From the NCBI GenBank assembly GCA_965204115.1, contig OZ241963.1, positions 532,622 to 596,621 on the forward strand: DNA of 64,000 bases, given 5' to 3'. Below are positions 10,916 to 62,966 of this stretch, piece after piece. The DNA comes from Minisyncoccota bacterium. Lineage in GTDB: Bacteria > Patescibacteriota > Minisyncoccia > Phycocordibacterales > JABAAK01. Within the stretch, counting starts at the first letter, position 1. The number at the start of each line of letters is the position of its first letter. The notes beneath the pieces are model-generated. The model saw nothing but the letters and a program-made list of their open reading frames with translations. It searched no databases and was not told where the DNA came from. Made by a program: the position numbers and the translations under genes.

Positions 10916-11587
10916 ATGACACACTCTTCACATCCTTATGGCTTTCGATTAGGTATTACCCGGGACTGGCGTACCCAGTGGTTTGCCGCTGATCGTAAAA
11001 AGTATCAGGCACTATTGCGGGAGGATTACTATATCCGCACTTTTCTTGAAAAGGAGCTGAGCAACAAGATGGTTAGTAGTATTTTGTTTGAGCGCGAGCG
11101 GGATACTCTGGTGATCACTATCAAGACCGCGCGGCCGGGGCTGATTATCGGGCGGGAAGGTGCCGGTATTGAGGAGCTGATACAGCGTGTGAAGCAGTTT
11201 GCCCGTAAACGAGGGTTGAACGATTTAATAAAAATACGGGTTGAGGAGGTGCGTTATGCCGAGCAGGATGCCACATTGGTTGCTGAATCAATTGTTGAGT
11301 CGTTGAAGCGGCACATGCACCCGAGACGGCTGATCAAGCATACCGTTGAGAAAGTGATGGCGAATCGAAATGTTCGCGGATGTCGGATTACCATAGCGGG
11401 TCGGCTTGGCGGTGCTGATATTGCCCGCAGTGAGGAGGTGAAGAAGGGTAACATACCGCTGCAGACCCTGCGCGCTGATATTGACTATGCGCAAAAAGAG
11501 GTTCCTCTTTCGTACGGCACGCTCGGTATTAAGGTTTGGATATATAAGGGAGATATTGAGCAGGATAATCAAGAAGAAAGAAAATAG
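10916..11587 (+). CDS. rpsC: 30S ribosomal protein S3
   Basis: KH domain plus S3 C-terminal domain (ARPGLIIGREGAGIE). Confidence 0.95.
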   Translation: MTHSSHPYGFRLGITRDWRTQWFAADRKKYQALLREDYYIRTFLEKELSNKMVSSILFERERDTLVITIKTARPGLIIGREGAGIEELIQRVKQFARKRGLNDLIKIRVEEVRYAEQDATLVAESIVESLKRHMHPRRLIKHTVEKVMANRNVRGCRITIAGRLGGADIARSEEVKKGNIPLQTLRADIDYAQKEVPLSYGTLGIKVWIYKGDIEQDNQEERK

Positions 11588-11588
11588 T

Positions 11589-12005
11589 ATGTTGTTTCCT
11601 AAGAAAGTAAAATATCGTCGATTTCAGCGAATGCGCAGTATTCTCGGGAAGAGGAATGCTGTTCGTGGCGCTGCGGTTAATTTTGGCACCTATGGCATGA
11701 AAGCAATGTCTCAAAAGCGAATTCGTTCCAATCAAATAGAGGCGGCGCGAAAAGTTATTGCCCGCACACTCGGTAAGACCGGGCGAGTATGGATTCGTGT
11801 TTTTCCTGACCGACCATGGACGCAGAAGGCGGCGGAAACAGGTATGGGGAAAGGCAAGGGCGATCCGCAAGGGTTTGAAGTTGAAGTTCTTCCGGGTCGG
11901 GTTTTGTTTGAAGTATCCGGTGTGGAAGAGGATGTGGCGCGGAGTGCTATTGTGAAAGCAGGAAAAAAACTGCCGTTGAAGATAAGGTTTGTCGCTAAGG
12001 TGTAG
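11589..12005 (+). CDS. rplP: 50S ribosomal protein L16
   Basis: MLFPKKVKYRRFQRMR canonical L16 N-terminus; start at the internal ATG (ORF track 11481). Confidence 0.95.
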   Translation: MLFPKKVKYRRFQRMRSILGKRNAVRGAAVNFGTYGMKAMSQKRIRSNQIEAARKVIARTLGKTGRVWIRVFPDRPWTQKAAETGMGKGKGDPQGFEVEVLPGRVLFEVSGVEEDVARSAIVKAGKKLPLKIRFVAKV

Positions 12006-12040
12006 GTTTGTTGTGGCAGGCGGTTTGTATAAAAAGGAAT

Positions 12041-12073
12041 GTGCGGCTTTGTGGTGATTTTCCAAAGCCGCAC
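12041..12073. terminator. Bidirectional intrinsic terminator between rplP (+) and the convergent antisense gene
   Basis: Perfect 11-bp stem GTGCGGCTTTG/CAAAGCCGCAC with an 11-nt loop. T-rich on the plus side (CTTGTGTTATTTGG) and ATTCCTTTTTATAC when read on the minus strand. Confidence 0.5.
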
Positions 12074-12079
12074 CTTGTG

Positions 12080-12688
12080 TTATTTGGATCTGGGTAGTCC
12101 AATGTAGCTCAGCAGATTTGCTGCGTTCCTGAAGACATCTTCCGGCAAGGACGCTTTGTTGTTCAGTGCCTGTCTTCTGATTTCTCCAATTGTTTGCAGT
12201 CGGTCCGCTCGATGGTTATGCAGATGCACTGCGACGGATAGTGTGTGCCAGTCTTTGCCCTGCGGATGACTGTTGATTTTGTCAATGGCCTGCTGCCACC
12301 TCCTGAGTTTCTGGTCATTGCTGAGGCGGTGCAGGTATTGGTTCATGATCTGCTCATCTGTCAGCGCTATGCGTTCTCGACATTCTTCACCATAGTGGTT
12401 CCTTGTCGCTTTGGATACTGTGTCTTCTACTCCTGTTATTCTCGCAACCTCAAAAATTCTTATTGCGTTTGCCGCATGCAGTATGATATCGCTGGATGCG
12501 CCGCTGATGTCGTCCTGTTTGAATTTGAACAGGTCGGTTTCGCAGATCTGCTCTACCAAGTAACATTTCTTGGTAAGATATGGGAAACCGGGTACCTCCG
12601 CGCATTCCGATCGTATGATTTCCAGCAGGCATGCTATCTCGTAACTTCCGAATACTCCCGATAGGGAGTTTATATTTGCCAGTTTCAA
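12080..12688 (-). CDS. Hypothetical 202-aa protein on the opposite strand inside the ribosomal-protein operon, TTG start
   Basis: Long ORF with start TTG at 12688 and GGAGG 13 nt upstream. Own downstream terminator. GC content slightly lower than neighbours. No confident domain; a possible R..H HEPN-like motif is speculative. Confidence 0.55.
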   Translation of the reverse strand: MKLANINSLSGVFGSYEIACLLEIIRSECAEVPGFPYLTKKCYLVEQICETDLFKFKQDDISGASSDIILHAANAIRIFEVARITGVEDTVSKATRNHYGEECRERIALTDEQIMNQYLHRLSNDQKLRRWQQAIDKINSHPQGKDWHTLSVAVHLHNHRADRLQTIGEIRRQALNNKASLPEDVFRNAANLLSYIGLPRSK

Positions 12689-12822
12689 TGTTATGCGAGC
12701 CTCCTTAAGTGTAGAAAGTGCTCAATGTTGATTGAGTCCTTGTCAATTGTACCATAGGCGCTGATTTATAGGAATAGGGCTGGGTAGATATTTGCGGTCT
12801 TGGTGTGGTAGTATGGTGGTAT

Positions 12823-13080
12823 ATGGCGAAAAAGGAAGCTGTAAAAAAAGTGAAGGGCGGTGGCGCGAAGAAAAAGGCGTCCGGTGCGTCGGTGAAAAAG
12901 GTGAGCAAGGAGGATTTGGTTGGGCAGATGCGGAAGTATAAGAGGGAGATGCAGGAGGTGCGGTTTGGACTCTCCAAGGAGGCGCAAAAGGGTGGTTCAC
13001 GGAAAAATTTGCGAAAGCAGGCGGCTCAAGCGGCGGTGCAGTTGACCAAACTGCGGAAAAGTGGTGCTGTGCGCCCGTGA
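12823..13080 (+). CDS. rpmC: 50S ribosomal protein L29 with a Lys-rich N-terminal extension
   Basis: Operon position between L16 and S17; small basic helical protein; start at MAKKE. Confidence 0.8.
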   Translation: MAKKEAVKKVKGGGAKKKASGASVKKVSKEDLVGQMRKYKREMQEVRFGLSKEAQKGGSRKNLRKQAAQAAVQLTKLRKSGAVRP

Positions 13081-13136
13081 TTGTGGGTGTCGCACAAAAG
13101 CAGTATTTGTGTCATACTATATATACCTATTTTTAT

Positions 13137-13385
13137 ATGGAAGAGAAAAAGAGTAAAAAAACACTCCGTGGGACTGTGGTTTCAGTGAAGATGCAGGACA
13201 CCGTTGTGGTGGCGGTTGATCGGTATGTGAAGCATCCCCTCTATGGCAAGTATCGTCGGAAAACGAAACGGTATAAGGTGCACTGTCCGGGGAACACCGC
13301 TGCGGTGGGTGAGCAGGTGACGATAGAGTCGTGCCGTCCTGTTTCCAAGGAAAAGCATTTTCAGATACTCCCTCAAAGCGTATGA
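13137..13385 (+). CDS. rpsQ: 30S ribosomal protein S17
   Basis: LRGTVVSVKMQDTVVVAVDRYVKHPLYGKY, S17 OB fold. Confidence 0.9.
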   Translation: MEEKKSKKTLRGTVVSVKMQDTVVVAVDRYVKHPLYGKYRRKTKRYKVHCPGNTAAVGEQVTIESCRPVSKEKHFQILPQSV

Positions 13386-14671: not shown

Positions 14672-14782
14672 GGTTTGTAGACCTGCAGCCTGCCATATTT
14701 TTGATTTTGTCCACAGTTTCCACAGGGGTTATGGTGGTGACGGATTTGTGGAGGTCGGAGGTGCGTGTATACTGGTTGTGTT

Positions 14783-15883
14783 ATGAATGACATCGTGTTG
14801 CCGTCGGGGTATCATTTTGGATCGGTCTCTCCGTCTGCTGCGACTGGCGGTGATGATCCCGCTGCCGACCGTACCGTCGCTGTTGCCGTTGATGATGAGC
14901 CATTGTTGGCGGAGAATAAGGATCGGTTTGTGCTGTTTCCGATTGAGCATAATGATATTTGGGAATTTTATCGGAACGGTGTGGCGAATTTTTGGGTGCC
15001 GGAGGAGGTGAATTTTTCTGATGACATCAGCCACTGGCGTGATCGGCTGAATGATGATGAGCGGCACTTTGTTAAGCATGTTTTGGCATTTTTTGCGGCG
15101 TCTGATGGGATTGTGAATGAGAACCTGGCGGAGGATTTTCTGGAGCGGGTGCAGTACACGGAGGCGAAGTTTTTTTACGGGTTTCAGATTGCGGTTGAGA
15201 ACATTCATTCACACACCTACTCACTCTTTATTGACACTTATATTCAGGATCGAGCGGAGCAGGATCATCTGTTGCACGCAGTTGAAACGGTGCCGTCGGT
15301 GAAGAAGAAGGCGGACTGGGCGCTGCGGTGGATTGAACAGGGGAGTTTTGTGGAGCGGTTGGTGGCGTTTGCGGTTGTGGAAGGGATTTTCTTTTCCGGG
15401 AGTTTTTGCTCTATCTTTTGGTTGAAGCACCGAGGGCTGATGCCGGGGCTTTCGTTCGCGAATCAGCTGATTTCACGAGATGAAGGACTGCATCGAGATT
15501 TTGCCTGCCTCCTGTATCGTGACCACATCGTGCAGAAGCTGCCGCAGGAAAAACTGACGGCTATGATACAGGAGGCGGTGGATCTTGAGAAGGAGTTTAT
15601 CACCGAATCGCTGCCGGTGCGGCTGATCGGGATGAATGCTGACAAGATGTCGCAATACATTGAGTATGTGACAGATCACCTGTTGGTGGAGATGGGGCTG
15701 GAGAAACTGTACGGTGCGACTAATCCGTTTGATTTTATGGACATGATTTCGTTGGAAGGGAAGACAAACTTTTTTGAGCGGCGGGTTTCTGAGTACCAAA
15801 AAGCAGGTGTGGCAACCGGCGATGAGCAGGGCGGCGGTGCCGGCACCGATCATCGGGAGTTTGACCTGGATCAGGATTTTTAG
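14783..15883 (+). CDS. nrdB: Ribonucleotide reductase small subunit (class Ia R2, eukaryote-like)
   Basis: [11 protein letters not shown] (radical Tyr) and [15 protein letters not shown] iron-ligand motifs. C-terminal FDLDQDF R1-binding tail. Confidence 0.9.
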
Positions 15884-16034
15884 GATGTGTTGCAGCTGCG
15901 ATGGATTTGCCGTAATTTGTTTTTATCATATTTTTTTATTTTGTAAAGTTTCCACAGATTTTGTTTTGTGATTGTGTAGAGTGCTGTTTTTGGCGTGGCG
16001 TGGGTGTGTATACTACGGGTGTTTGTTTGTCCAT

Positions 16035-18491
16035 ATGATGTATGTCCTTAAAAGAAGTGGAGAGCGAGAAGAGGTTCGGTTTGATGCTATCTTGGAGAGG
16101 ATTTCTTCTCTGATGGATGGTTTAGATACACGGTTTGTTGACCCCGCGGAGATTACGCAGCGGGTGGTTGATGGATTGTATGACGGTATTAAGACGACTG
16201 AGCTGGACGAGCTGGCGGCGACGGTGTGTGCCTCATTGGCGACGGTGCATTTTGACTTTGCGCGGTTGGCGGCGCGGATTGCTATCTCTAATTTACACAA
16301 GGAGACAGAGGCGTCTTTTACCGAGACAGTGAAGCGTCTGCATGCGTATATTGAGCCGCGGACCGGGCTGCACGCGCCGTTTGTGTCTGATGAACTGCTT
16401 AATCTGGTTACGCTGTATGGAGAGAAGATAGACGCGGCGATTGATCATAATCGGGACTATGAAATGTTTGATTACTTCGGTGTTAAGACCTTGGGGAAGG
16501 GGTACTTGATGTCGTTCGGCAGCACGCCGATTGAGCGGCCGCAGCACTTGTTTATGCGGGTTGCGCTCGGGATACATGGTGATGATCTGGATGCTGCGTT
16601 TGAGACCTACAATCACTTGTCCCTGAAGGACTTTACGCATGCAACGCCGACACTGTTTAACGCGGGGACGCCGTTGCCGCAGATGAGTTCGTGTTTTTTG
16701 ATGGCGATGTCGGATGACAGTATTCAGGGGATTTATAAAACACTTTCTGATGCGGCGTTGATTTCACAGCATGCGGGCGGTTTGGGCATCAATATTCATA
16801 ACATTCGGGCGAAAGGGAGTTTCATCGCAGGGTCGCGAGGATACTCTAACGGACTGGTGCCGATGTTGCGGAATTTTAATGAGACGGCGCGGTATGTTGA
16901 TCAGGGCGGCGGTAAGCGGAAGGGGGCGTTTTGTATTTACCTTGAGCCGTGGCACGCGGATGTGAAGGATTTTCTTGATTTGCGGAAGAATCATGGGGCG
17001 GAGGAGATGCGGACACGGGATTTGTTTTTGGCGTTGTGGATCCCTGATTTGTTTATGCGGCGTGTTGAGTCGGATGGCGACTGGACGCTGATGTGTCCGA
17101 AGGAGTGTCCGGAGCTCTACACCTCTCACGGGGAGGTGTTTGAGACGCTGTATCAGCAGTATGAGCGGGAGGGGCGCGGAAGGGAGACGATGAAGGCGCG
17201 GGATTTGTGGAGTCAGATTATTGATTCACAGATTGAGACCGGAACACCGTTTATGTTGTACAAGGATTCGGCGAATCGCAAGTCCAATCAGAAGAATTTG
17301 GGGACGATCCGCAGCAGTAATTTGTGTACCGAAATTATTCAGTATTCTGATGACAGGGAGACGGCAGTGTGTAATTTGGCTTCTATTTGTGTGAATAAGT
17401 TTGTGCGGGAGGATGGATCGTATGATTTTGAGCGGCTGCACGCTGTGGCGAAGGTGGTATGTCGTAATTTGAATAAGATTATTGACCGGAATTTTTATGT
17501 GGTGCCGGAGTCGTCGCATTCTAATTTTCGGCATCGCCCTATCGGTATTGGGGTGCAGGGGCTTGCCGACACCTTCGCACTTTTGCGATACTCGTTTGAT
17601 GAGCCGCGCGCGCGGGAGTTGAACAAAAATATTTTTGAAACGATTTATCATGGGGCGGTTGAGGCATCTATTGAGTTGGCGAAACAGAATGGAGCGTATG
17701 AAACTTTTAAGGGTTCGCCCGCGTCTGAGGGGAAGTTTCAGTTTGATCTGTGGGGGGTAATTCCTGATTCCGGGTTGTGGGACTGGGAGGCGACCCGCAA
17801 GGAGATGGTTGCGCACGGCTTGCGAAACTCGCTCTTTTTGGCGCCGATGCCGACGGCGACAACAGCGCAGATATTCAGTAACAATGAGTCGGTGGAGCCG
17901 TTCACCTCCAACCTGTATGTGCGGCGGGTTTTGTCCGGGGAGTTTATTGTGATTAATAAGCATCTGCTGCGGGATTTGCAGGAGTTGGGAATTTGGAATG
18001 AGGATATGCGGCAGCGATTGATCGCGTCACGGGGGTCGGTGCAGGGGATTGCGGAGATTCCTGTTGAGGTGCGGCAGCGATACCGCACGGTGTGGGAGAT
18101 ACCGCAGCGGCATATCGTTGACATGGCTGCTGATCGGGGTCCGTATATTTGTCAAAGTATGAGTTTGAATATTCATATGCGGGATGCGACTGCGGGGAAG
18201 TTGACTGCGCTGCATTTTCACACCTGGAAGCGGGGACTCAAAACGGGGATGTACTACTTGCGCAACACGCCGGCGGTTGAAGCAGTGCAATTTACCGTTG
18301 ACAAGACGAAGGTGGGTGACGGCGTGCCACAGCAAAAAGCGGGTACTGCTGATTCGCCTGCCGCAACGCCACCATCACCACCAGCCCCCGCTCCGGATCA
18401 GGTGAAAAAGGAGGCGGTTGCTCCGGTGACTGTTTCTACGCCTTCCGGGATTGATGAGGATGAAAATAAGTGCTTTTCCTGCGATAGTTGA
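16035..18491 (+). CDS. nrdA: Ribonucleotide reductase large subunit (class I R1)
   Basis: ATP-cone N-terminus ([17 protein letters not shown]). Catalytic region SNLCTEI. C-terminal Cys pair ...CFSCDS. Confidence 0.92.
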
Positions 18492-18643
18492 CCTGTTTTA
18501 TCGGTCTATACACATACGGCTGAGTCCAGCATTTTTAATGGTAGTATAGGAGTGTAGGGTATTACCCAATGCTCTACAGTAGTTTTTTACGAGAGGCGGT
18601 TCTGGTGCTTTATGGTGTAGGCACCAAGGGTATTCCGTCTCAG

Positions 18644-30209: not shown

Positions 30210-33200
30210 ATGTTTTCTTTTAATGACCAGCGTGGCGGTTTTGCCACCATCGCCATTGTCGGGGGTGTTGCTGTTGCGGTTGTTGCCGGGGGTGTGTTTT
30301 ACTTTTTGCGCAGTAGCCCGCCTGAAGTTGATACTGTTTTGAAGGATGATTCGGCTACTGTTTTCGGTGAGGAGACCGTTTTGTCTGTTGATGCGGAGGA
30401 TGCGCTGCTTCGGAGTTTGCCTCGCGGGCGTACCAATGACTATTGCTCGTTACTCGGATTGGAGCGGGAGGCCTGTGCGGGTGGTGCCGAGGGTGTGTGC
30501 CGGGACTTGTTTGGCAGCTGTAGTATTGACGTCTCCCGTGACTCCTCTGACACTATTCGGCAGTTTGCCGAGGCCTGCTTGGTTTTGCGAACTGCGGAAG
30601 GGCGGTCGCAGTATTTTGCATGGCTTGATAGCGGTGATCCGAAGCCGTTTCCGCTTTATTACGCCATATTCGGACTGGAGGAAGGTGCGTTTAACCAGAA
30701 ACAACTCACTGATGCGTACCAGGTACTATTGGATTCATACTTTTCCACTGCTTCCTGCGACAATCGTGAGGCACTTCGTCTTTTGTCTGAGGGGTATCTT
30801 TTGCTGAGCGATGCTGCCGGTCGGTCTGAATACGATGTGTGGCTGAATGGCACCGGCAGTGATCCGTTTCCCTTATACTACGCGCTTCTTGGGCTGCGTA
30901 GAGACACTTTTACGCAACAAGATTCTGCTGATGCATACAAGAAAACCTTGGATCAATATCTTTCCGGATACTACGGCAACAATACTGAGGTCTTGCGCCT
31001 CTTGACCGAAGCGCATATGATATTGTACGATCCGTCATCGCAGTCCGCCTACAGCACACTTCTTGATGGCGGTCTGTCATCTTCTTTTTCCGATATTTCT
31101 CTTGATTTGGGTGGGGACAATCTGTTTTCTGCCCTCAGTGATCTTAACCTTTCACCCACTCATCTCGGTACTGTTTTCGGCTCCTTAGACCTGTCTTCTG
31201 CTGAGCTTGTAAGTGCTGCTGCCACGCTTGATTTCTCCTCCACTGATTTAGGCGGCTTTGTTGGCGGACTCAATCTTTCTCCGGGCAATCTCAGTGCCGT
31301 TCTGAGCGATTTTAGTATCTCTCCGGATAATCTTGGCGCTGCTCTTAACGGTCTTAATCCTTCCACTGATGACCTGAGTAACATTCTGAGTGACCTTGAT
31401 CTTTCTGCCGCTGAGCTGAGTATTGTTTTGAGTGACCTTGCTCTCCCCGCCGATGAGCTGAGTACCGTTCTGGGGGATCTTACTATACCTCCAACTGACC
31501 TGCAGACCTTATTTACCAATTTCGATATCCCTTTTCTTGGTGAGGGTACTCCGTTTCCCGGTGTTGCCGTGCCGCCCGATGATTTGCCGGATGATGCTGA
31601 TGATTTACCGGCGGTTGCTATTTCTCCGAAGCTTGTTCAGATTGGTGTTAAGAATGACGGTGTTCAGCCATCATTTCTCGTGGAGGTTACGAAAGGTGGT
31701 TCTCCGTACGCCCCTGATACGCCGATTACAGTTGCTCTGGAGTGTGAGGATGCCGTTCGTCCGGCTAGTCAGCCGACCACTTCTTTGATTTTAAGCGATT
31801 TGCCGGAATCTGTCCTGCTCTCTGCCAGCAAAGGTACGACCGGGGATTTAGTTCGAGCCCCTGGTGTTACCGGGTATGTTGTATGTGCTGTTGTTGCTGA
31901 CACTAATACAGATCCGACTTACATACTTGGCTCACCCTCCTCTGCAAGAGTTACTATTGTTGGAGGTTCGTCCGGTCCGCCTTGTGATAGGCCGTCGTGC
32001 CCCGGTGATCCGACCAGCGGTCCGTTGCCTACTGTTTCCATTGCCGCTGTTGAGCCGCGTGTTGCCAGCGGTGATGATGCGGTGTTTCGTGTTTCTTCCA
32101 GTTCCGATATTGTCGGGTCGTTGCATGTGCAGTATTCATGCAGTGCCAATACCAGTGTCGATAACACTTATCTCGGCGAGAATGATGTTACGATTCAGGG
32201 TGGTTCCGGGCAGTTTGCTACTACCATCACCCTGCCGACGAATGAGGATGTTTCTGATACCGTTACATGTGAACTACTTGATAGTGTAAAAAATGCGTAT
32301 AGGATTTTAGGTCGTGATGCTTCTGTCGGAGTCGGGTTGTTGGGATCAGGGGACATTGAAGGGTATGATCCTGCATTGCCGACCGTCTCCCTGATAGCGT
32401 ATCGCACGACACCGGGCAATTCTGGTAAGTTTTCAGAGAAGGTTAGCAGTACCGTTGTTGGTGATACGGACACTTATATTGGACTGGTGATTGATGACCC
32501 TGAATCAGATTCTTTTGGTGATGAGGATCCGGACTCCCGGAAGGAGGTTTCTGACGGTGAGTTGTATGTGCTGTATGTGACAGATTTTGGTAATACCATT
32601 TCTGTGCTGCCGGGCGATGGAGGGACTGTCACTGTTGGCATTAGTAAGGATAGGGAGGTTCCGGACTCGGAGCCGCTGTTTAATGCTGTCGCCGATACCG
32701 TTGTTGCCAAGCATTCAGGGTATGGGAGTCCTCCCACCGCTCTGCATCACAGTGCTGGGGGTGGTAGTCGTTGGAGAGGTAATTTTGCCGAGGGCAGTAT
32801 CTTTATTGAAATAACCGCAGATCATCGCGTTATTATGCGGAATGATGTCGAGGGAAATGTGATTGTTTGTGGCTATGATCGCGGTGTTCTGTATTGTGCG
32901 ACTTATGAGGATGCAGATAGATTTGCCCCGAGAAATATCTTTGTTACCGCGGAGTGTCGTAAAGAATTTTCGGATCGTGAGAGAAGTCGGGAGGACTCCG
33001 GTCTTATCACAGGCGGTCGGCGCGTGGTTGATCGCGGTAGTGAGCCGTCGTATGCGTTGCCGGTGTTCGGGTATGCTCCTGTTCGTCGCGGTGATCCCGA
33101 GGGTGACTTATACACCTTTATTCGTTCTGACGGGACTTACGATGCCCTTGATGAAGATGCAGGTCCTGATTCGGTGTTTAGTTCGATCCGTATCGATCCT

Positions 33201-36200
33201 TTTCTTGAGCCGGATACGACTTTTTCCTGTAGGATTTCCGGTGGCGGGGCAGAGGATGGGTATAATGTCGGCACTCCTTATGCGGAAGTGCAGGTGCGAC
33301 CGCGTGCGACGATATCTCTCGGTGTGCATGGTGCGCAGCGTGTTGCTGATGAGTCAGGGCTTCTCGGTGAGCCGGTTGCGCATCTTGATCGTCGTCAAGC
33401 GGAGTATAATTTTGATTCTGACAACTCTGACTTTTCTGATTTTCCCACCGGCCCAACCGGAGGTAGAGAGATTCCTGGTGTTGATGCATCGTTTCGTGAT
33501 GTGTCCGCCAGTTTAGGGGCGTCTCTTAGTGTTGGGTTTCTCACTTCTTTTGGTGCGTGTGCCGGTTCCTCTCTCTTGAATCGAGGAATCAGTGAGCTTG
33601 CTAATAGAATTGGTCTTGGCGGTTTTGGTGCTGTTCCGGTTAGATCTGCAAAACTTGAACTCAAGGAGTGTGTTTTGGATTCCGCTGTTTCCGGCGCTGT
33701 TTTGGAGGTGCTTACTGCTGTTGCGAGAGATTATATCACCTGGGCATCTGAGGGATTTGAGGACAAGCCGCTGTTTGTGAAGAATCCGACCACTTTTTAT
33801 AAGAACCTGCGCGATGATGCAATCGGTCGTGTTATTGATCGGAGTGGTCTTGGGTTTCTCTGCGATATCGGCGTTCCTAATTTTGAAGCGTACGAGGCAA
33901 CGCTTAAGATTAATTTGCAGCAGCAATATCTCGGCATCGCTACTGATCGACCGAGGTGTACCTATAGTGATTTGGCAAATAACCTTGAGGATTTTTATGA
34001 TGATGCTTCAGATGTTTTGCGTGATCTTGATCCGGAGTATTTGAGAAGCTTTGGTTTTACTATTGACGGCTCTGTCAGAACGCAGAACGCAGGCACTTTT
34101 CAGTTTCCGCCGTCTGATGGATTTACCGGCAATCAGCTTGATGCGTTCTCGGCGAACCTTGATCGCGCTATGAAGAAGACGGAGAATAGTAGTAATTTTC
34201 TCCTGGCTGTTTCCCAGGTGGATAGTGATATTCGCGAGGCGCGGCAGGAGTTTGATGCCGCTGTGAAGCCGGTTTCTCAGATTTTTAATCCGAATGACCC
34301 GACATCAATTGGTGCGTTTCGGGAGTGTAATGAGACAGAGAATCCGGAAGGTGATGTTGACTGTTTTTCATTGAATGTATCCGGTTCTAAGATTACTGAA
34401 ATGACCGGTAAGGGGATTAGCTCGCTTTCCGACCGATTGTTGCAGGTTGATGAGTTTGGGGAGTTTGGTCAGTTGGTTGGTCTGGCGGTGAACGCGACTT
34501 CTGCCGGCTTGATGAAGAAGTATTTAAGCAGGGGCTTTGGGCATTCAGTAGACAGAGAGACCGCGGATCTGTTGAGTAATATTGAAAAAGATATTGATGC
34601 CTCTCTCAGGCCGTCAAGTGCTCGTAAAGTTAGTTTGAGTGAGAACTGGTGGTCGGTGTTTTTTGAAAGAAACGCGTTTTATAATGACTTGCTGAATGCT
34701 GAGATGTATGCGAATGATGTCTTTACCTTATTGCAGTATATTGGGTCCGGTTTGTACCGGGATCCGAAGCGAATTGGTGATAAGGCATATATCCCTCCTG
34801 TCCGTCCTTATACCGCCTTTGATACTTTGCGCCATGCGAGTACGAGTGGTACACCAGGGCAATTTCCCATATTTTCGTATGGCAATTTGATTGGTTTTTC
34901 TTCCGCACAACTTACGAGGAATTATGCTAATTTTTATCACGCTCCAGATATTAAGAGTGCTGTTGAGGAGCGTGCTTTTGAGCAGCTTAATGGTAATAAT
35001 GGATGGGCGAAGGAGCGACTCCAGCATATTTTTAACGGCTGGGTCAGTGATGAATCCGGAGAGGAGCAAGGGTATCGAAAGATGGTGGCGATTGAGCGGT
35101 TTGATGATGCGCATCGTTTTTTGTCTAATGGTGAGGCGCGTTCAGCGTACAATGCTTTTCTCGGCAAGATGGGGGACTTTATTGAGAATACGCCGTATGA
35201 TCGGCAAGGCACGAGTAATTGGTGGAAGAAGAGTATGAAGAATATGCCAGACGATGTGAGAGAAGATATAGCCGGCCCTGGTCCTTCTTTGCCGGGACAT
35301 TTAGCAGGACTTAAGGATACAGATTCGCTCACCGACGATCAGAGTGTTCACTATCCCGAGGACCACACCGATTTTTCAAAACGTGTTTTCGGCGTCGGCT
35401 CTTCGGAGGAAAGGACTTGTGGTAATACACCCTGTGCTGATTGCCTGTTTCGTCGTTCAAGAGCGGCGTCAGGGAGTGCCGCGACGTGTACAACGGAAGG
35501 AGGAACAACATACCCTTGCATCAATGATATTGCGGGAAATATAGGACAGTGTATATATTTTAAGGGCGGTACTTCTGATCTTAGTGCTGGTGTTTGTGGT
35601 CTTTCGCTTACGGATCCGAGGTTTGAAACCCATTGCGGGGTCTGCTGGCCTCACAATCTCAATGGCAATACCGATCAAAATAAGTTTACTGCGTTTACGG
35701 GTGAGGTTGAGTACTATTGTCCTGCGGGAGGGACTTCCGAAAAGTTGCTGGATGCTCAGGGGGACCTTGTTACCATCAAACAATTGCGTAAGATTTACGA
35801 AGCAACATTGGCGGTGCATATTCGTTTAGTTGGAACGCTTGATGAGTATCGAGGCGCTCCACTGCTCAGCTCGCCTATTCATACTTACCGCAGAGAGATT
35901 TTGGATGCTTATCGGGCAGATCCTGATTCTGATGATCTTGATAGTGGCGGCGGGTGGGCAGTTGTGCAGCAGGAAACTTTAAAAAAGTTTCGTGACGGCA
36001 CAATGCAGGTGTATATTCCTCTTGACGATGACGAGTTTGGTGAGCAGGAGTATTTGACTCTTTTGAGTAGTGTTGGGTGTGTGAAAGCGGATGCGATTAC
36101 TTTTCAGGACGGTGCTTTTATCAGAAGTTATCAGGAGATGAGTTGTGTTTTAGGAACAGTTTTTCAGGATCAGGCGTACTTTGTACTTCGTCGAGAGAAT

Positions 36201-37031
36201 GATGATCTCAATAAGCGGCGTGTTGTGTATCTTGCTTGCGGGTATGATGATGATTCTGATGATGATTCTGTCGCTCCCGGCCAGCAGTCAGATGCAGACA
36301 AGCGTTTCCGGTTCAAGAAGGGCGTGGAAGGAAACCCAAGACCACTTCCGCCGGTGACCCTGGAGAAGGGGGAGGATTCGGTTATCTTTCCGGTGCCGAA
36401 ACCGATTTGGTCGCCGTTTGATCTTGGTGACCGCACTCCTTATAATAAGGATGACACTCCTCCTAACTACACTCCATTAACCGGTCAACGGATTCGTTGC
36501 TCTATAGATTTGAAGAGGACTCAGGTGAGTGCTGATGTTGCTGTGGATACGCTTACCCAAGTTGTCACTGTCTCGGAGCATCTGTCAAATGATGGTTCTC
36601 CCGTCACTTTTCACTCTCTGGTTCGGAATACTTTGGGGGGTATTGTTACCTCTCGTCTTGAGGATCGAAAGGATATGGTTGCTGAAGCACTGTTTTATAC
36701 CTATGTTTGGGGGTGGTATACCGGATTTATAGAGATGCCGTATTACTCTATTCAAGGACTGTTATCTAACCCGCCGGTAATTTTGACGGATAGCAAGGTG
36801 GCGGTGACGGCGAATATTCAGGGTAATCAGGAGGCGTTGCGACGGTATCGTTTTTTGAGTTCGCTGTTTGCCAATGAGAGTGATTCGCGGTTTTCGTCAA
36901 AAAACTTTGGTTTTCTTACTCCTGCTGAGGCGCGTGCTGAGTACGAGCATTCTTTTGACGATCGGTTTAATGGATATTTTGGACGCGCGCTCGGAGAATT
37001 TTTTGAGCTGCTCCCCAATATGCATCAGTAA
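30210..37031 (+). CDS. Giant (2273 aa) membrane-anchored surface protein. One N-terminal TM, three degenerate J-domain-like repeats lacking HPD, about nine 14-aa tandem repeats, then a large Cys-containing domain of unknown function
   Basis: Single uninterrupted 6.8-kb ORF. TM GFATIAIVGGVAVAVVAGGVFYF. J-like repeats PLYYALLGL...DAYKKTLDQY...LRLLTEAHMILYD span nt ~30432-31065. 14-aa period xxVLSDLxLSxxEL spans nt ~31092-31530. Confidence 0.75.
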   Translation: MFSFNDQRGGFATIAIVGGVAVAVVAGGVFYFLRSSPPEVDTVLKDDSATVFGEETVLSVDAEDALLRSLPRGRTNDYCSLLGLEREACAGGAEGVCRDLFGSCSIDVSRDSSDTIRQFAEACLVLRTAEGRSQYFAWLDSGDPKPFPLYYAIFGLEEGAFNQKQLTDAYQVLLDSYFSTASCDNREALRLLSEGYLLLSDAAGRSEYDVWLNGTGSDPFPLYYALLGLRRDTFTQQDSADAYKKTLDQYLSGYYGNNTEVLRLLTEAHMILYDPSSQSAYSTLLDGGLSSSFSDISLDLGGDNLFSALSDLNLSPTHLGTVFGSLDLSSAELVSAAATLDFSSTDLGGFVGGLNLSPGNLSAVLSDFSISPDNLGAALNGLNPSTDDLSNILSDLDLSAAELSIVLSDLALPADELSTVLGDLTIPPTDLQTLFTNFDIPFLGEGTPFPGVAVPPDDLPDDADDLPAVAISPKLVQIGVKNDGVQPSFLVEVTKGGSPYAPDTPITVALECEDAVRPASQPTTSLILSDLPESVLLSASKGTTGDLVRAPGVTGYVVCAVVADTNTDPTYILGSPSSARVTIVGGSSGPPCDRPSCPGDPTSGPLPTVSIAAVEPRVASGDDAVFRVSSSSDIVGSLHVQYSCSANTSVDNTYLGENDVTIQGGSGQFATTITLPTNEDVSDTVTCELLDSVKNAYRILGRDASVGVGLLGSGDIEGYDPALPTVSLIAYRTTPGNSGKFSEKVSSTVVGDTDTYIGLVIDDPESDSFGDEDPDSRKEVSDGELYVLYVTDFGNTISVLPGDGGTVTVGISKDREVPDSEPLFNAVADTVVAKHSGYGSPPTALHHSAGGGSRWRGNFAEGSIFIEITADHRVIMRNDVEGNVIVCGYDRGVLYCATYEDADRFAPRNIFVTAECRKEFSDRERSREDSGLITGGRRVVDRGSEPSYALPVFGYAPVRRGDPEGDLYTFIRSDGTYDALDEDAGPDSVFSSIRIDPFLEPDTTFSCRISGGGAEDGYNVGTPYAEVQVRPRATISLGVHGAQRVADESGLLGEPVAHLDRRQAEYNFDSDNSDFSDFPTGPTGGREIPGVDASFRDVSASLGASLSVGFLTSFGACAGSSLLNRGISELANRIGLGGFGAVPVRSAKLELKECVLDSAVSGAVLEVLTAVARDYITWASEGFEDKPLFVKNPTTFYKNLRDDAIGRVIDRSGLGFLCDIGVPNFEAYEATLKINLQQQYLGIATDRPRCTYSDLANNLEDFYDDASDVLRDLDPEYLRSFGFTIDGSVRTQNAGTFQFPPSDGFTGNQLDAFSANLDRAMKKTENSSNFLLAVSQVDSDIREARQEFDAAVKPVSQIFNPNDPTSIGAFRECNETENPEGDVDCFSLNVSGSKITEMTGKGISSLSDRLLQVDEFGEFGQLVGLAVNATSAGLMKKYLSRGFGHSVDRETADLLSNIEKDIDASLRPSSARKVSLSENWWSVFFERNAFYNDLLNAEMYANDVFTLLQYIGSGLYRDPKRIGDKAYIPPVRPYTAFDTLRHASTSGTPGQFPIFSYGNLIGFSSAQLTRNYANFYHAPDIKSAVEERAFEQLNGNNGWAKERLQHIFNGWVSDESGEEQGYRKMVAIERFDDAHRFLSNGEARSAYNAFLGKMGDFIENTPYDRQGTSNWWKKSMKNMPDDVREDIAGPGPSLPGHLAGLKDTDSLTDDQSVHYPEDHTDFSKRVFGVGSSEERTCGNTPCADCLFRRSRAASGSAATCTTEGGTTYPCINDIAGNIGQCIYFKGGTSDLSAGVCGLSLTDPRFETHCGVCWPHNLNGNTDQNKFTAFTGEVEYYCPAGGTSEKLLDAQGDLVTIKQLRKIYEATLAVHIRLVGTLDEYRGAPLLSSPIHTYRREILDAYRADPDSDDLDSGGGWAVVQQETLKKFRDGTMQVYIPLDDDEFGEQEYLTLLSSVGCVKADAITFQDGAFIRSYQEMSCVLGTVFQDQAYFVLRRENDDLNKRRVVYLACGYDDDSDDDSVAPGQQSDADKRFRFKKGVEGNPRPLPPVTLEKGEDSVIFPVPKPIWSPFDLGDRTPYNKDDTPPNYTPLTGQRIRCSIDLKRTQVSADVAVDTLTQVVTVSEHLSNDGSPVTFHSLVRNTLGGIVTSRLEDRKDMVAEALFYTYVWGWYTGFIEMPYYSIQGLLSNPPVILTDSKVAVTANIQGNQEALRRYRFLSSLFANESDSRFSSKNFGFLTPAEARAEYEHSFDDRFNGYFGRALGEFFELLPNMHQ

Positions 37032-37957: not shown

Positions 37958-40900
37958 GTGTATATGATGTTTGCTTTTATCAGGCGGCGGTGGGTTGTGT
38001 TCGGCACACTTTGTTTATTGTTGCTGTGTTTGGTTTTTGTGCCGCAGTTTGTGTTTGCTAATGTTGCTGATGGAATTACCAGCGTTATTAATGCCGTGGT
38101 CGGAGGTTTGATGAAGGGGCTTGAGTGGCTGGTCTCGCTGTTTCAATTCTTGTTTTTGCAGGTTATTCAATTTACCATTCTTGATTTTGCAAATCACTGG
38201 AAGGATAAGGGACTTCTTTCTGATTTTCGGGTGGTGTGGCAGGTCCTGCGGGATTTTGTGAACCTGTCCATTGTTGTGCTTTTCGTTCTTACCGCCATGA
38301 TGACTGTTCTTGACGCGAAAGGGCAATTCGGCTTTCACCGGAAGGGGTTGTTGTATTTGATTGCTGCTGCTGTTTTTGTGAATTTCAGTGCTTTCTTTAC
38401 TTTGCTTGTTATTGATGTTTCGCATATTCTGTTTATGTTGTTTTTTAATGCACTTGATGTGTCAACATTAGGATCGTTCTCGCCGTTCTCCGGGTATAGT
38501 GAGGTTTTGGGTAGTACTGCTGATGGCATTTTCAACATCATTCTCGGCGTTATTGCGATTGTGGTGAATTGGTTTATCATACTCGGCATTCTCTATTTCT
38601 GTATCATGTTGATTGAGCGGTATATTATTGCCATGTTTCTTGTACTTTTTTCGCCGTTCGCGGCACTCGGGTTTTTTACCAACATGTCCGGCGGTGGTAA
38701 CCCTCTTGCCGACAAGTTTTCCGGTGTGTATAAGATATGGAGTGAGCGGCTTGGCTATGTGTTCACCATGCCGGTCATACTTATCGTTGGGTTTGCGCTT
38801 CTGTTGGTTTTGTTCCGCGGGGCGTTGGGTCAGATGGTTGATCCTGATAACTTTGTTAAGTTGATTGGTGTTAACACTCCGGAGGGGCGGGGTATTCTCC
38901 TGCAGCTTATGCTTGCGAGCGTTGTGTTGATACTTGGCATTTTCAAGGTCGGTGAGTTTGCGAAGAATGCGAATATTCATCCCGCTATTGCTAATAAGTT
39001 TAAGTTTGGGGAACTGGCGTCCAAGCTGGTTCCAAAAGCGTCATCTGCTCCGAAAGCGGTACTTGGTGCTGTTCGGTCGATTAAGAACCCTGCCGGTCGG
39101 GGTGTCTTTGGTTATAAGCAAAAGATCTATGATCAGCGGAAGGAGTGGCAGCAGGCGCAGGATAGGGGGGAGAAGACGCCTTGGATCGCAAAGGTGCCCG
39201 GCGTCGGGAAGTCGCTTGATGTGGGGGGTAAAGTGCGGCGAGGCAGGCAGCGTGCTCAATCTATTGTTCGCGGCGCTCAGGTAGTTGCGGGCGGGCAGTC
39301 AGGTCGTAATGTTGACTGGCAGAATGCTGAGGCAAATGAGGACGCGAGAATCTGGGACATCATTCGTAACCCCACCAGCACTAGAGAGCAAAAGGAAGAT
39401 CTTTTGACGCAGGCGCTTGATGATAAGAGCAATGTTACGCTTAATGAGCAGCAGACCGCTGAGCTTGCGAGGAACATTGAGTTGCACCCACTGATTTCAT
39501 CATTGAAGAAGGGGGTTTCTCAGGGTACTTTCAGGCAGATACGAGGGGATGCGGAAGTACGGGCAAAGGAGCTTGCTGTTGAGAAGGATGCTATTGCCGC
39601 TGAGAAGGGCACCCCTCCTCCTGAGTATGAGAAGAGACAGCAGGAGCTTCACACTGCTGAGATAGATTATAAGGGCGCAGAGCTGGCGTATGATGATTTG
39701 ATGCGGCAAAAAAATTTTGCACAGGATGAGTTTAATGCCGCGAAGGAGGCATTTGAACAGACGGATGCGTATAAGAAGTTTAATCGAGATCTTGACAGTA
39801 AAATGCAGGACTTTGAGTCCGGCAAGATAGCTTGGGAGGATGTTGAAAATTTTGAGACCACTTTTTATGAGGATGCTGCAACTCGAACGCAAGCCGGTTC
39901 TGTCCGGCAGCAGAAGCTTGCTGTATTGGAGAAGATGAAGGATTCATTGCGTACGGCAAAAGATACAAAGAAGTCCGCGGACAATGTACAGCAGGGTGCC
40001 AAGAAAGCCTTTGAGGTTGAGGAGAGCAAGCATTATAATGCTATACGGCAAAAGGAAGACGCTAATACCAGTGCGCGAGGGGTGGTTACGCAGACATTTT
40101 CTAACCTTGCGACGAATACTGCCGCAGGTACCTCTGTTTCAAGAAATGCAGCAGCGGTGTTTGACCCTGATGCATTGAAGGATGCGCGTGCGGAGCGGGA
40201 GTCCGTTGCTGCTCCTATTGATAAGCAATTTCAGAATATGAAAAATGATTATGCGAAGTCGTCCGCAGTCGCTTTGGAGGACCTTAAGGCAGAAGAGAAA
40301 ACTATTGCGGAGAAAAACGCTGAGGAGAATGCGGATCTTCTTGAGAAGCGGGAGGAGTATGCTGATGAGGAGATGCAGAATCCTAACCCCAATGTTCTTA
40401 CGAGTCGCATGTTTGAGCTTCAGGAGGAGATTGATGCTTTGGAGCAGGAGTCCGCCGCGCGTCGTGAGCGATCTTTGGCGATTAATGCGGAGAGAGGTCG
40501 TATTAGGTCTATCAGAAAAAATCTTGAGAAGCAGGATGTTTCTGATTCTGAGAAGCTTGCCGTTCTTGGTGAATCTGTCAAGAGTGCGAAGTCATTTGTG
40601 CAGGGTGGGACGCAGTATCTTACTGCTCAGCTGAAGGCTGTTGATGATAAAATGACTGCGCTTGAATCTGTGGCGAAGCAGCGGGGTACTGATGTGAATA
40701 GCAATAGTGAGTACACAGATCTGCGGGATGAGCAAGAGCGCATCACCAATCGTATTGGGTATATCGGTCGTGTCGGTGGCAGTATTGCGGAGGTGGGTGA
40801 GGCCTTAGATGAGCAGAAGGAGATCCTTGAGAGTCCGGAATATACCGACGCTCTTGGTCAGGAACAGTATCTCTCGCTGTTCAGTGTGAAGACCTTACTG

Positions 40901-41188
40901 CGTGATATTGAGTCGGCTCTGGAAAGGCGTAAGAAGGCCTTTACTGAGAAGGAAGAGAAGAAGCTGGCGAAGAAGATGAAAGAGCAAGGGAAGAAGGGCG
41001 CTCCGAAGGTTCCGAAGAACGCTCATAAGGAGGATCCTGAGTGGAAGGTTCTTGACCAGCAGAAGAAGAATCTCAAGAAGATACAGGCGGAAGGTGGTGC
41101 CTCTGCTGAGCTGCAGCAGGCGGCCGTTAAGGCGGCAGAGCAGCTGGCAAAGCAGCAAGCGCAGAAGAAAAAACAGAAACAAAAATAG
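37958..41188 (+). CDS. VirB6/TrbL-like polytopic membrane protein with a long K/E-rich coiled-coil C-terminal extension (1076 aa)
   Basis: N-terminal signal-like helix, then at least six TM helices over about 330 aa, then about 700 aa of charged coiled coil. Sits immediately upstream of the VirB3/VirB4-like genes. Confidence 0.6.
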   Translation: MYMMFAFIRRRWVVFGTLCLLLLCLVFVPQFVFANVADGITSVINAVVGGLMKGLEWLVSLFQFLFLQVIQFTILDFANHWKDKGLLSDFRVVWQVLRDFVNLSIVVLFVLTAMMTVLDAKGQFGFHRKGLLYLIAAAVFVNFSAFFTLLVIDVSHILFMLFFNALDVSTLGSFSPFSGYSEVLGSTADGIFNIILGVIAIVVNWFIILGILYFCIMLIERYIIAMFLVLFSPFAALGFFTNMSGGGNPLADKFSGVYKIWSERLGYVFTMPVILIVGFALLLVLFRGALGQMVDPDNFVKLIGVNTPEGRGILLQLMLASVVLILGIFKVGEFAKNANIHPAIANKFKFGELASKLVPKASSAPKAVLGAVRSIKNPAGRGVFGYKQKIYDQRKEWQQAQDRGEKTPWIAKVPGVGKSLDVGGKVRRGRQRAQSIVRGAQVVAGGQSGRNVDWQNAEANEDARIWDIIRNPTSTREQKEDLLTQALDDKSNVTLNEQQTAELARNIELHPLISSLKKGVSQGTFRQIRGDAEVRAKELAVEKDAIAAEKGTPPPEYEKRQQELHTAEIDYKGAELAYDDLMRQKNFAQDEFNAAKEAFEQTDAYKKFNRDLDSKMQDFESGKIAWEDVENFETTFYEDAATRTQAGSVRQQKLAVLEKMKDSLRTAKDTKKSADNVQQGAKKAFEVEESKHYNAIRQKEDANTSARGVVTQTFSNLATNTAAGTSVSRNAAAVFDPDALKDARAERESVAAPIDKQFQNMKNDYAKSSAVALEDLKAEEKTIAEKNAEENADLLEKREEYADEEMQNPNPNVLTSRMFELQEEIDALEQESAARRERSLAINAERGRIRSIRKNLEKQDVSDSEKLAVLGESVKSAKSFVQGGTQYLTAQLKAVDDKMTALESVAKQRGTDVNSNSEYTDLRDEQERITNRIGYIGRVGGSIAEVGEALDEQKEILESPEYTDALGQEQYLSLFSVKTLLRDIESALERRKKAFTEKEEKKLAKKMKEQGKKGAPKVPKNAHKEDPEWKVLDQQKKNLKKIQAEGGASAELQQAAVKAAEQLAKQQAQKKKQKQK

Positions 41189-41236: not shown

Positions 41237-41440
41237 GGACTTCAATAGTCCCTGTCCTGCCGTGCGGTCAGTTTACTGACCACAAAAATGGACATACTGA
41301 AGTTCTTTAAAAGTGACCTTCCTTATTAGTGCCCGCAAGGGGTAGCTGCTTCGGCGGCATGGGAGGTCCATAACTATCTGATAGAGTTACGCTTGCCCAA
41401 CCGGTTTCCATAAGACTGGTTGGGCATTTGTTATTTTTAT
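41237..41440 (+). ncRNA. Structured leader or small RNA of about 200 nt between the consensus promoter and an intrinsic terminator, immediately upstream of the VirB3/VirB4-like genes (candidate attenuator, riboswitch or sRNA)
   Basis: Four hairpins: GGACT-tcaat-AGTCC, GGTCAG-TTTA-CTGACC, CCC-GCAA-GGG (GNRA tetraloop) and GCTGC-UUCG-GCGGC (UUCG tetraloop). Terminator GCCCAACCGGT/ACTGGTTGGGC at 41395..41425 followed by ATTTGTTATTTTTAT. No ORF inside. Confidence 0.4.
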
Positions 41441-41458
41441 ACGCTATACTGTGTTTGT

Positions 41459-41914
41459 ATGCGCTTTCAGGTTCCGCAAAATTTAGATGTGCCGGATACT
41501 ATTCTTTTGGGTTTGGATTTTAGGCAGCTGATTTACCTTGGTGGTGCTGCCGGACTTTTGGTGTTTTTGTTTCTGTTTTTTGGTATTTTGCCGACGGTCT
41601 TTATTGGTGGTCCGGTTGCTATTCTTGCGGGTTTTTTGTCGTTTTTTACCTATAATAACCAGAAGTTTGTCACGCTTTTTCAATCGTTGATACGGTTTTT
41701 TTCCCGGAAGAAGATGTATGTGTGGCGGCGTGGTACTATTGACGCAGCAGTGCGGCGCACAGCTAAGGAGGATGACTCCGTTGACGGGGAATTTGTGCAC
41801 CCGGACTCTTATTCGCAACGACAGCGGCTGGATAAGGTTCGTGAAGTGAGTGCCAATCTTGTTTTTTCTGATGATGGGGGTGACTCGTATGATGAGCTTG
41901 ATATTGTTCTATGA
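41459..41914 (+). CDS. VirB3/PrgI-like small 2-TM protein of T4SS-type systems
   Basis: About 150 aa with a two-TM hairpin (LIYLGGAAGLLVFLFLFFGILPTVFIGGPVAILAGFLSFFTY), directly before the VirB4 ATPase. Start chosen at the ATG downstream of the terminator; track start 41420 overlaps the terminator. Confidence 0.55.
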   Translation: MRFQVPQNLDVPDTILLGLDFRQLIYLGGAAGLLVFLFLFFGILPTVFIGGPVAILAGFLSFFTYNNQKFVTLFQSLIRFFSRKKMYVWRRGTIDAAVRRTAKEDDSVDGEFVHPDSYSQRQRLDKVREVSANLVFSDDGGDSYDELDIVL

Positions 41915-42531: not shown

Positions 42532-42580
42532 TACATTTGTTTTGCCTCCGTGATGTTTATCTGGTGTATTATATTGGTAT

Positions 42581-48523: not shown

Positions 48524-48580
48524 GATATTGGTATTATAGTACCATTTGTGTGTGTGAGTAGGCGTGATACACTGAGGTGT

Positions 48581-54517: not shown

Positions 54518-54655
54518 ATAGTCATGATAGCATACCCCGTTTTTCTTTTGTGTATATCCTCTTGCGTATTACAGCAACTGTGGCATACTAATTATTGTTT
54601 GATTGTGCGAGGGCGCATGACACACATATTTTTTGTATTAGCGTATAGAATTATA

Positions 54656-62726: not shown

Positions 62727-62966
62727 TGTATTGTCAGTATACTGCATGTGGTGTAGGTGTGGTATAGTGGTGGTAATGAGTTTATTTTCTCGCGGTGTGT
62801 TGTTTTTTTGGTATCGGGTGGTGTATTGTTTCGCGCGGCTGCGCGGTTCGGGCGCTGCTGATGCGGATGTTTCGGCGCGGTGTGTCGCGTTGCGTCGGGT
62901 CGGGCGGGTGATTGATGCGCGAACGCAGGTGTTGGCGAGGCAGATTTTTGCTAACAGTTCATAGGT

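Follow-up and report, generated by a model that had tools for sequence, protein, structure and literature searches.

Few gene orders in bacteria are as well conserved as the S10-spc string. Here, we report a lineage-specific break in this string in a 64,000-nucleotide stretch of contig OZ241963.1 from a Minisyncoccota bacterium (assembly GCA_965204115.1; the whole stretch is referred to as the window), where an open reading frame (ORF) for 202 amino acids (aa) lies between rplP and rpmC on the strand opposite to the ribosomal-protein (r-protein) genes. To judge from its sequence conservation, the antisense ORF is a genuine protein-coding gene under purifying selection, vertically inherited and fixed at the rplP-rpmC junction in one small clade of Paceibacteria type. 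The gene, its anatomy and its fold class, taken together, are very probably as described below, and the observations as a whole are best explained by a self-contained, conserved gene encoding an orphan antitoxin-like factor that would act in trans, to which we assign a probability of roughly 0.55.

The plus-strand string in the window reads rplC, rplD, rplW, rplB, rpsS, rplV, rpsC and rplP, followed beyond the break by rpmC, rpsQ, rplN, rplX and rplE. The otherwise co-directional genes are interrupted by the ORF, which converges with rplP and diverges from rpmC. Its length, strand and coordinates are those reported in an earlier note that was made from the letters of the sequence. The three genes at the junction are:

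11589..12005, plus strand: rplP (L16, 138 aa), last gene of the proximal block, convergent with the ORF
12080..12688, minus strand: the antisense ORF (202 aa, TTG start, TAA stop), between rplP and rpmC
12823..13080, plus strand: rpmC (L29, 85 aa), first gene of the restarted distal block

The L16 protein of the window is 58-73% identical to L16 of 80 Patescibacteria species, the closest species-representative genome being a 'Candidatus Pacebacteria' chromosome (73%), and 91-93% identical to L16 in two of the loci compared below (L003 and L004). This puts the window among the Paceibacteria/Parcubacteria-type Patescibacteria. The assignment of rpmC is corroborated by its orthologue in L090, which matches PF00831 (Ribosomal_L29).

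Conservation and synteny of the antisense gene

A search of 5.8 billion proteins returned 12 homologues of the ORF product with 46-100% identity, all of about 200 aa, and 40 residues are invariant in their alignment. When 1.84 billion representatives were searched exhaustively with an HMMER profile, only three further close members and one remote family came to light, and nothing else close. The family, though real, is very narrow, and no relatives of the ORF turned up in scans of GTDB species genomes or JGI metagenomes. Pairwise ratios of nonsynonymous to synonymous substitution rates (dN/dS) are 0.13-0.33, with synonymous sites near saturation. The lower GC content first ascribed to the ORF is marginal and not meaningful (0.479 versus 0.489-0.547 in the neighbouring genes and 0.504 in the window), and the GC content at third codon positions (GC3, 0.54) falls inside the local range.

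The comparison set consists of eight loci in ribosomal context, together with L091 outside the ribosomal cluster (nine loci in total). In all eight ribosomal-context loci the ORF is antisense and adjoins rpmC or its duplicated start module: in six of them its divergent neighbour is rpmC itself, and in L004 and L165 a Tricorn-like gene. The eight have diverged down to 46% protein identity in the ORF. On its other side, zero to about five cell-wall amidase/beta-propeller genes are carried as cargo between rplP and the ORF, distributed as follows:

Window and L164: nothing (same minimal layout)
L090: one gene for a 250-aa predicted lipoprotein-like protein
L003 and L004: the 250-aa gene, beta-propeller (Tricorn-like) genes and an Amidase_3/FlgD_ig cell-wall amidase gene
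L001: beta-propeller genes, the amidase gene and an IS1595 transposase fragment; the 250-aa gene was not seen, and the contig stops short of rplP

Because its position is constant while the cargo varies among relatives, the ORF is, as far as sequence comparison goes, the constant element of a lineage-specific operon break and neither a recent nor a mobile insertion. The ORF is not flanked by direct or inverted repeats, apart from short matches at chance level, and no transposase or integrase is present in the window; only L001 has a nearby transposase fragment, of the IS1595 type. The amidase, the beta-propeller protein, the 250-aa protein and IS1595 gave no tblastn match in the 64-kb window, and neither did the HD partner and Panacea genes introduced below. 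The homologue in L091 is more divergent and longer (229 aa). A 179-aa gene lies 183 base pairs (bp) downstream of it on the same strand, with no Pfam match and no homologue in the window.

Insertions at this junction are rare, as the earlier note had supposed. Among the other Patescibacteria loci in which both rplP and rpsQ were found, the gap between these genes is 12-377 bp in 77/77, which therefore leaves space for rpmC at most, and the ORF is present in none (0/77). The gene is conserved in relatives, as might be expected of a housekeeping gene, but within one narrow clade only, and a general housekeeping gene it is not. Two side observations concern rpmC in these comparisons. In 12 of the 77 species (L019, L037, L042, L054, L055, L057, L059, L061, L066, L068, L077 and L084) the gap is only 12-80 bp, too short for rpmC, and L29 therefore seems to be absent or relocated in these lineages. 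Also, in L003 (2275-2695) rpmC is split into two overlapping ORFs of 118 and 41 aa, reflecting either an assembly frameshift or a disrupted gene.

Expression signals and the predicted restart of rpmC

A scan for consensus sigma-70 promoters found no -35/-10 promoter in 11500-13300, and the promoters proposed here therefore rest on conserved extended -10 boxes. The signals around the ORF and ahead of rpmC are:

12746..12754, minus strand: extended -10 element TGGTACAAT, predicted promoter of the ORF
12721..12737, minus strand: conserved stem-loop ACTCAAT-CAAC-ATTGAG at the predicted 5' end of the ORF mRNA
12700..12704, minus strand: Shine-Dalgarno sequence GGAGG, 11 nucleotides (nt) upstream of the TTG start
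12028..12073, minus strand: intrinsic terminator with stem GTGCGGCTTTG / CAAAGCCGCAC (12041-12051 / 12063-12073, 11-nt loop) and tail ATTCCTTTTTATA
12806..12814, plus strand: extended -10 element TGGTAGTAT, predicted to serve rpmC-rpsQ-rplN-rplX-rplE, 8 nt upstream of the rpmC ATG

An element of the form TG-N-TA(C/T)A(A/C)T is kept in 8/8 orthologous loci, 50-70 nt ahead of the ORF start codon, and transcription of the ORF is predicted to start near 12739, which would give a 5' untranslated region of about 51 nt. The TTGACA box that had been proposed as a promoter element of the ORF is present at 12741-12746 of the minus strand but lacks a -10 at the proper spacing and reads TGAACA, TTAACA or TCAACA in relatives; it overlaps the end of TGGTACAAT, which is the conserved element. 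The GGAGG was correctly recognised: it is conserved in orthologues, being found 7-11 nt ahead of the start in five of them and also upstream of the start in L164, L165 and L167. The TTG start likewise holds in 7/8 orthologous loci, with GTG in the eighth.

The stem-loop begins about 2 nt past the predicted transcription start. Its dyad is single in the window, where 0.03 would be expected by chance, and the stem is kept by compensatory changes in L167 and L091 (ACTTGATA / TATCAAGT; ACTTGACA / TGTCAAGT); RNAalifold found double changes in 3/6 pairs, from six sequences only. The loop varies from 4 to 15 nt across loci, as is more likely for an RNA hairpin than for a dimer operator. Metagenomes scanned for the motif gave 72 matches, about the number expected by chance, and none of them encodes the ORF, L16 or L29. 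Directly after the hairpin, ACTTTC, part of a conserved ACTTT(T) tract, is able to pair with the Shine-Dalgarno sequence. From the TTG start, the 5' hairpin and this possibly Shine-Dalgarno-masking segment we infer that expression of the ORF is low.

Between the two convergent stop codons lies a perfect 11-bp inverted repeat with seven G-C pairs, the terminator that had been noticed at the outset. It folds at -22.7 kcal/mol (z score -4.7; 0/200 shuffles fold as well) and, read from the sequence, has the GC-rich stem-loop followed by a U-run that defines an intrinsic (rho-independent) terminator, its minus-strand tail being ATTCCTTTTT (T-run; AUUCCUUUUU). A simple terminator scan limited to loops of <=8 nt missed it because the loop is 11 nt. 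The hairpin TGCGGCTTTG...CAAAGCCGCA with its T-run is found downstream of the ORF in every orthologous locus, and the equivalent hairpin in L091 (GCGGGTTTG / CAAACCCGC) keeps its pairing through compensatory changes. In L003, L004 and L090 the gene converging on the ORF has a second hairpin of its own. One hairpin alone separates the convergent rplP and ORF in the window and L164. Since it is the only one there, it is plausible that the terminator also stops rplP transcripts, i.e. that it works both ways as originally suggested; its plus-strand tail reads CUUGUGUUAUUU. The ORF would accordingly appear, from these signals, to be transcribed alone from its own promoter to its own terminator.

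That rpmC needs a promoter of its own had been pointed out, with TTGTCA...ATTTAT as the candidate. The need stands, but the conserved element is another: TGGTAGTAT is invariant in 8/8 loci, 6-8 nt ahead of the start codon of the gene that carries the module. As the predicted transcription start falls on or within 2 nt of the rpmC AUG, the distal r-protein genes are predicted to be restarted as a leaderless or nearly leaderless mRNA; a weak GGTGG is present 3 nt ahead of the ATG. L004 (365-1636, minus strand of the locus) carries an extra copy of TGGTAGTAT, 8 nt, the ATG and the opening 13 codons of rpmC (MTKKRTVKKVKGG), joined to a Tricorn-like beta-propeller gene of 396 aa, and has the module and rpmC intact further downstream. 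This duplication fits the expectation for a portable start module.

Extended -10-like boxes 6-8 nt ahead of an ATG occur at other gene starts of the window, two of them in genes next to tRNA genes:

47525-47542, minus strand: hisS, start 47525
48565-48583, plus strand: start 48581
54517-54532, minus strand: start 54517
62760-62778, plus strand: start 62776

The box at 62760 (TGGTATAGTGGTGGTAATG) is close in form to the rpmC module. As similar boxes precede several gene starts, this suggests that leaderless mRNAs may be common in the organism. A second exact copy of TGGTAGTAT is located at 18539-18547 (plus strand), intergenic after the gene for the large subunit of ribonucleotide reductase (RNR), and has no obvious plus-strand gene after it.

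Fold and relatives of the protein

The ORF encodes a 23-kDa protein of 202 aa with an isoelectric point (pI) of 7.7 and no membrane-spanning segment. In keeping with the absence of a recognisable domain remarked upon earlier, scans of curated families gave no usable Pfam, NCBIfam, PADLOC or PHROGs match, and a sequence-profile search of the PDB with the ORF family found no match. The HEPN-like R..H motif that had been offered as a speculation does not hold: a regular-expression search found no R-x(4-6)-H in the protein, and no HEPN structure is among the Foldseek matches.

Structure prediction was among the checks proposed in the earlier note. Two independent AlphaFold2 models were obtained, from 12 sequences (predicted local distance difference test, pLDDT, 79; predicted template modelling score, pTM, 0.81) and from 50 sequences (pLDDT 84, pTM 0.84). 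For both, the top Foldseek match in the PDB is 7yk3_B (probability 1.00, template modelling score (TM) 0.58-0.64, about 200 aligned columns), whereas the other matches have TM <0.4 and are mostly winged-helix regulators; the viral fold library BFVD gave no convincing match. Chain B of 7yk3 is DarG of the M. tuberculosis DarTG system. The DarT toxin is described as being bound and inhibited by the C-terminal helical domain of DarG, to which DUF4065 (Panacea) proteins are reported to be homologous (PMC13621843). Panacea domains neutralise toxins through direct binding or serve as sensors (PMC8832971, PMC10440598), and their GPV motif is reported to be critical for neutralisation (PMC8832971).

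A second line of evidence comes from sequence profiles. With hmmsearch against 1.84 billion proteins the ORF profile matches P0018, P0020 and P0021 (183-188 aa, E 2e-8 to 9e-4), which belong to a larger family named 'uncharacterized protein YwgA' in JGI. An hhalign comparison of the ORF family (alignment A1) with this YwgA-like family (A2) gave 99.0% probability (E 2.6e-18, 176 columns), and YwgA-like members match DarG models over residues ~180-324. The ORF protein would by these models belong to a fold family comprising the DarG C-terminal domain and the YwgA-like proteins.

The likeness to DarG is one of architecture. The ORF models are two-lobed, with helices and small beta-hairpins, and match the DarT-binding C-terminal fold over their whole length, as far as predicted structures can tell. 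Unlike DarG, the ORF protein has no macrodomain (no Macro match in Pfam or NCBIfam), its whole length aligning to the C-terminal domain; it is 14% identical to DarG with no sequence-profile match, and there is no adjacent darT gene. With the YwgA-like family it shares a similar length (202 versus 183-193 aa) and the motifs LxKKxY, NxxGE, WxxxIxxIN and D(W/F)xxLS(I/V)A. The YGPYS motif, invariant in the YwgA-like alignment at G48, P49, Y50 and S51, present also in DarG and corresponding to the Panacea 'GPV' signature, has been lost in the ORF family: the position reads (S/x)-G-(A/V)-(S/F)-S (G-A-S-S against YGPYS of DarG), only G63 and S66 are kept, and the proline is missing in 12/12 members.

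The genomic contexts differ as well. The YwgA-like gene is found 11 nt downstream of a gene of about 460 aa with HD and HD_assoc_2 domains (dGTPase-like) in 3/3 independent contexts (five loci). No HD gene is found beside the ORF in 9/9 loci, nor anywhere in the window by tblastn; the ORF would be transcribed alone within the r-protein cluster and is limited to one Patescibacteria clade. The HD-YwgA module (L085:2610-4567, L086:2604-4579, L088:2604-4570) is in itself a conserved and apparently uncharacterised two-gene pair, and no functional study of YwgA was found in a literature search. In two of its three contexts type IIG restriction-modification genes are neighbours, joined by a PLD-helicase in one case and by OLD/AAA_15 and Schlafen-type ATPases in the other; the third (L086/L087) has no defence-type neighbours. 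The pair looks like a candidate toxin-antitoxin or defence pair. Since the partners of YwgA are deoxynucleoside triphosphatase-like, a functional tie between the ORF and the nearby RNR genes was also considered and dropped, as the RNR adjacency is lost in L003 and L090.

From Panacea (PF13274) the ORF protein is set apart by the lack of a Pfam match at E<=10, of the GPV signature and of an adjacent toxin. As a positive control, a Panacea protein of L001 matches PF13274 at E 2.2e-24. In hhalign against this protein the ORF family reached 0.2% probability and the YwgA-like family was likewise not significant, and the link to Panacea therefore rests only on the literature and on DarG. What the ORF protein may have in common with Panacea is the mode of action of small neutralisers or sensors working through protein-protein contact (PMC8832971, PMC10440598). 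The control gene (L001:3430-3984, plus strand) is a genuine SocA/Panacea gene, antisense between rplE and the RNR genes and absent from the window. It makes a second antitoxin-type solo gene within the r-protein cluster of L001.

Unlike a type II toxin-antitoxin module, the ORF has no same-strand neighbour within 100 bp in the eight ribosomal-context loci. It resembles, on general grounds, the orphan (solo) antitoxins in being a stand-alone antitoxin-type gene with no cognate toxin. The break resembles, again on general grounds, known exceptions to S10-spc continuity in being lineage-specific, with transcription re-initiated downstream. No described case of the ORF family or of an occupied rplP-rpmC junction was found.

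Proposed function and alternatives

We propose that the ORF product is a weakly expressed, cytoplasmic protein that would work by binding another protein, as the DarG C-terminal domain does with DarT and standalone Panacea domains do with toxins, and would be an orphan antitoxin-like inhibitor or sensor whose partner may be encoded elsewhere or come from outside the cell. The insertion would have made a terminator-bounded antisense unit within the r-protein operon, accompanied by a dedicated leaderless-type promoter for rpmC-rplE, with the terminator perhaps also insulating the ORF from rplP read-through. The protein-binding mechanism in trans, drawn by analogy, is the tentative part of this proposal and stands somewhat short of even odds.

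Several points weigh against the orphan antitoxin-like explanation. The ORF has no partner gene and would be transcribed alone in the eight ribosomal-context loci; none of the nine loci has a toxin-like neighbour, whether HD, DarT or another, and the 64-kb window is without homologues of HD, DarT, amidase or Panacea genes. The Foldseek E-values against 7yk3_B are only 0.023 and 0.008, and the DarG link is transitive, as the ORF profile itself matches no PDB sequence and no PADLOC model. In place of the GP[VY] motif the family has G-[AV]-S-S. Both the promoters and the leaderless mRNA are predictions from conservation.

An alternative is that the protein is a winged-helix DNA-binding regulator which represses its own promoter, the divergent rpmC promoter or both through the dyad ACTCAAT-N4-ATTGAG. 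Divergent layouts of regulator and target are common, and so are self-repressing antitoxins. The N-terminal half of the model is a helix-helix-hairpin with weaker Foldseek matches to PadR/Pex, MarR, RTP and VanR, and the dyad, conserved with compensatory changes, sits downstream of the -10 box and ahead of the Shine-Dalgarno sequence. Its half-sites are 4 to 15 nt apart (15 nt in L165), a variability that suits an RNA hairpin far better than a dimer operator, and it occurs once only in the window. Also, a pI of 7.7 is not basic, and the DarG C-terminal domain, at a TM of 0.6, is matched better than the winged-helix proteins (TM <0.4). Panacea domains, moreover, are thought not to be the autoregulatory DNA binders (PMC10440598). 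We consider this alternative unlikely. Of the lineage-specific regulator envisaged in the earlier note, the lineage specificity is borne out, while the regulator is possible but not the best-supported reading.

The gene could instead be the surviving half of a two-gene module, a toxin or HD hydrolase with its YwgA/DarG-like neutraliser, that landed together with cargo and has since lost its effector, the remaining gene having taken a new role or serving mainly to insulate transcription or to carry a promoter. The YwgA-like relatives are always paired with an HD gene in the contexts examined, the signature GP[YV] motif has decayed, and the junction is a hotspot for cargo (amidase and beta-propeller genes, the IS1595 fragment of L001 and its Panacea gene after rplE). 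Purifying selection over the whole protein and the 40 invariant residues argue for a use of the protein itself, none of the nine loci retains a trace of an effector, and the L091 gene outside the ribosomal cluster is likewise without a recognisable toxin. We consider this reading improbable.

A bolder version, to which we would give only about one chance in eight, is that a neutraliser domain of the DarG C-terminal/YwgA type, freed from its toxin, now has a core role fixed in the chromosome. In these bacteria, which are ultra-small and probably symbiotic, it might confer immunity to toxins that a host, competitor or phage delivers from outside, or act as a sensor coupled to r-protein expression through the back-to-back promoters, one giving an mRNA with a structured leader and the other a leaderless mRNA.

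That the gene is selfish or mobile DNA of recent acquisition, or an anti-phage defence gene standing on its own, is largely refuted and very improbable. The orientation opposite to the operon, the absence from 77 other Patescibacteria loci, the distant relatives in defence islands and the IS1595 fragment adjoining the ORF in L001 would be in its favour. The gene is nevertheless fixed beside rpmC or its module in 8/8 loci, among which protein identity has fallen to 46% and synonymous sites are saturated, its GC and GC3 are of native type, and neither flanking repeats nor an integrase or transposase are found in the window. Of the two possibilities raised earlier, the selfish element is contradicted by constant synteny, purifying selection, native composition and the lack of mobility genes and flanking repeats. 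The defence gene keeps weak support from distant relatives, which are found next to an HD-type hydrolase in defence islands, but the ORF has no effector partner nearby, no effector domain and no PADLOC match. Finally, a chance ORF on the antisense strand has nothing but the non-ATG start and the lack of a database domain to recommend it, and is refuted by homologues conserved at the protein level with dN/dS well below 1, by confident AlphaFold models, by the conserved Shine-Dalgarno sequence, promoter and terminator, and by the 684 bp from rplP to the rpmC promoter that hold no other plausible feature.

Some further features of the window were observed. The r-protein cluster ends with rplE (14671), and the usual rpsN, rpsH, rplF and so on are not next; genes for the small and large subunits of a class I RNR (14765-15883 and 15972-18491) follow directly, an adjacency also found in L001 and not in L003. 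L23 (8765-9319, plus strand) has an N-terminal extension of about 90 aa, making 184 aa in total, and L29 has a lysine-rich N-terminal extension (12823-12900, plus strand), its length differing among relatives (85-98 aa). In the region made up of 30210-37031, 37958-41188 and 41420-44413 (all plus strand), two very large ORFs, of 2273 and 1076 aa, have no Pfam match. The two are followed by type IV secretion-like genes (PrgI family; VirB4/TraG-type P-loop ATPase).

The fold class is already known; the ORF family itself has not been described before, lacks a partner, departs from the signature motif and is found in one small clade only, and its product is for now a lineage-restricted hypothetical protein with a plausible, model-based fold assignment. 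The rplP-rpmC break offers a comparative example of an S10-spc string that was split and kept split, and whose distal block appears to have become leaderless under a conserved replacement promoter. The ORF also extends the toxin-binding group of the DarG C-terminal domain, YwgA and Panacea to a partnerless, motif-altered branch, which evolves under purifying selection in genomes of only ~0.7 Mb that retain little dispensable DNA. A partner of the protein, if found, could show what 'orphan antitoxin' domains do and could also illuminate the uncharacterised HD-YwgA modules in defence islands. If the gene does have a core role, it would be the first orphan member of the superfamily with a housekeeping-like function, and an example of how an S10-spc restart at a new promoter becomes fixed.

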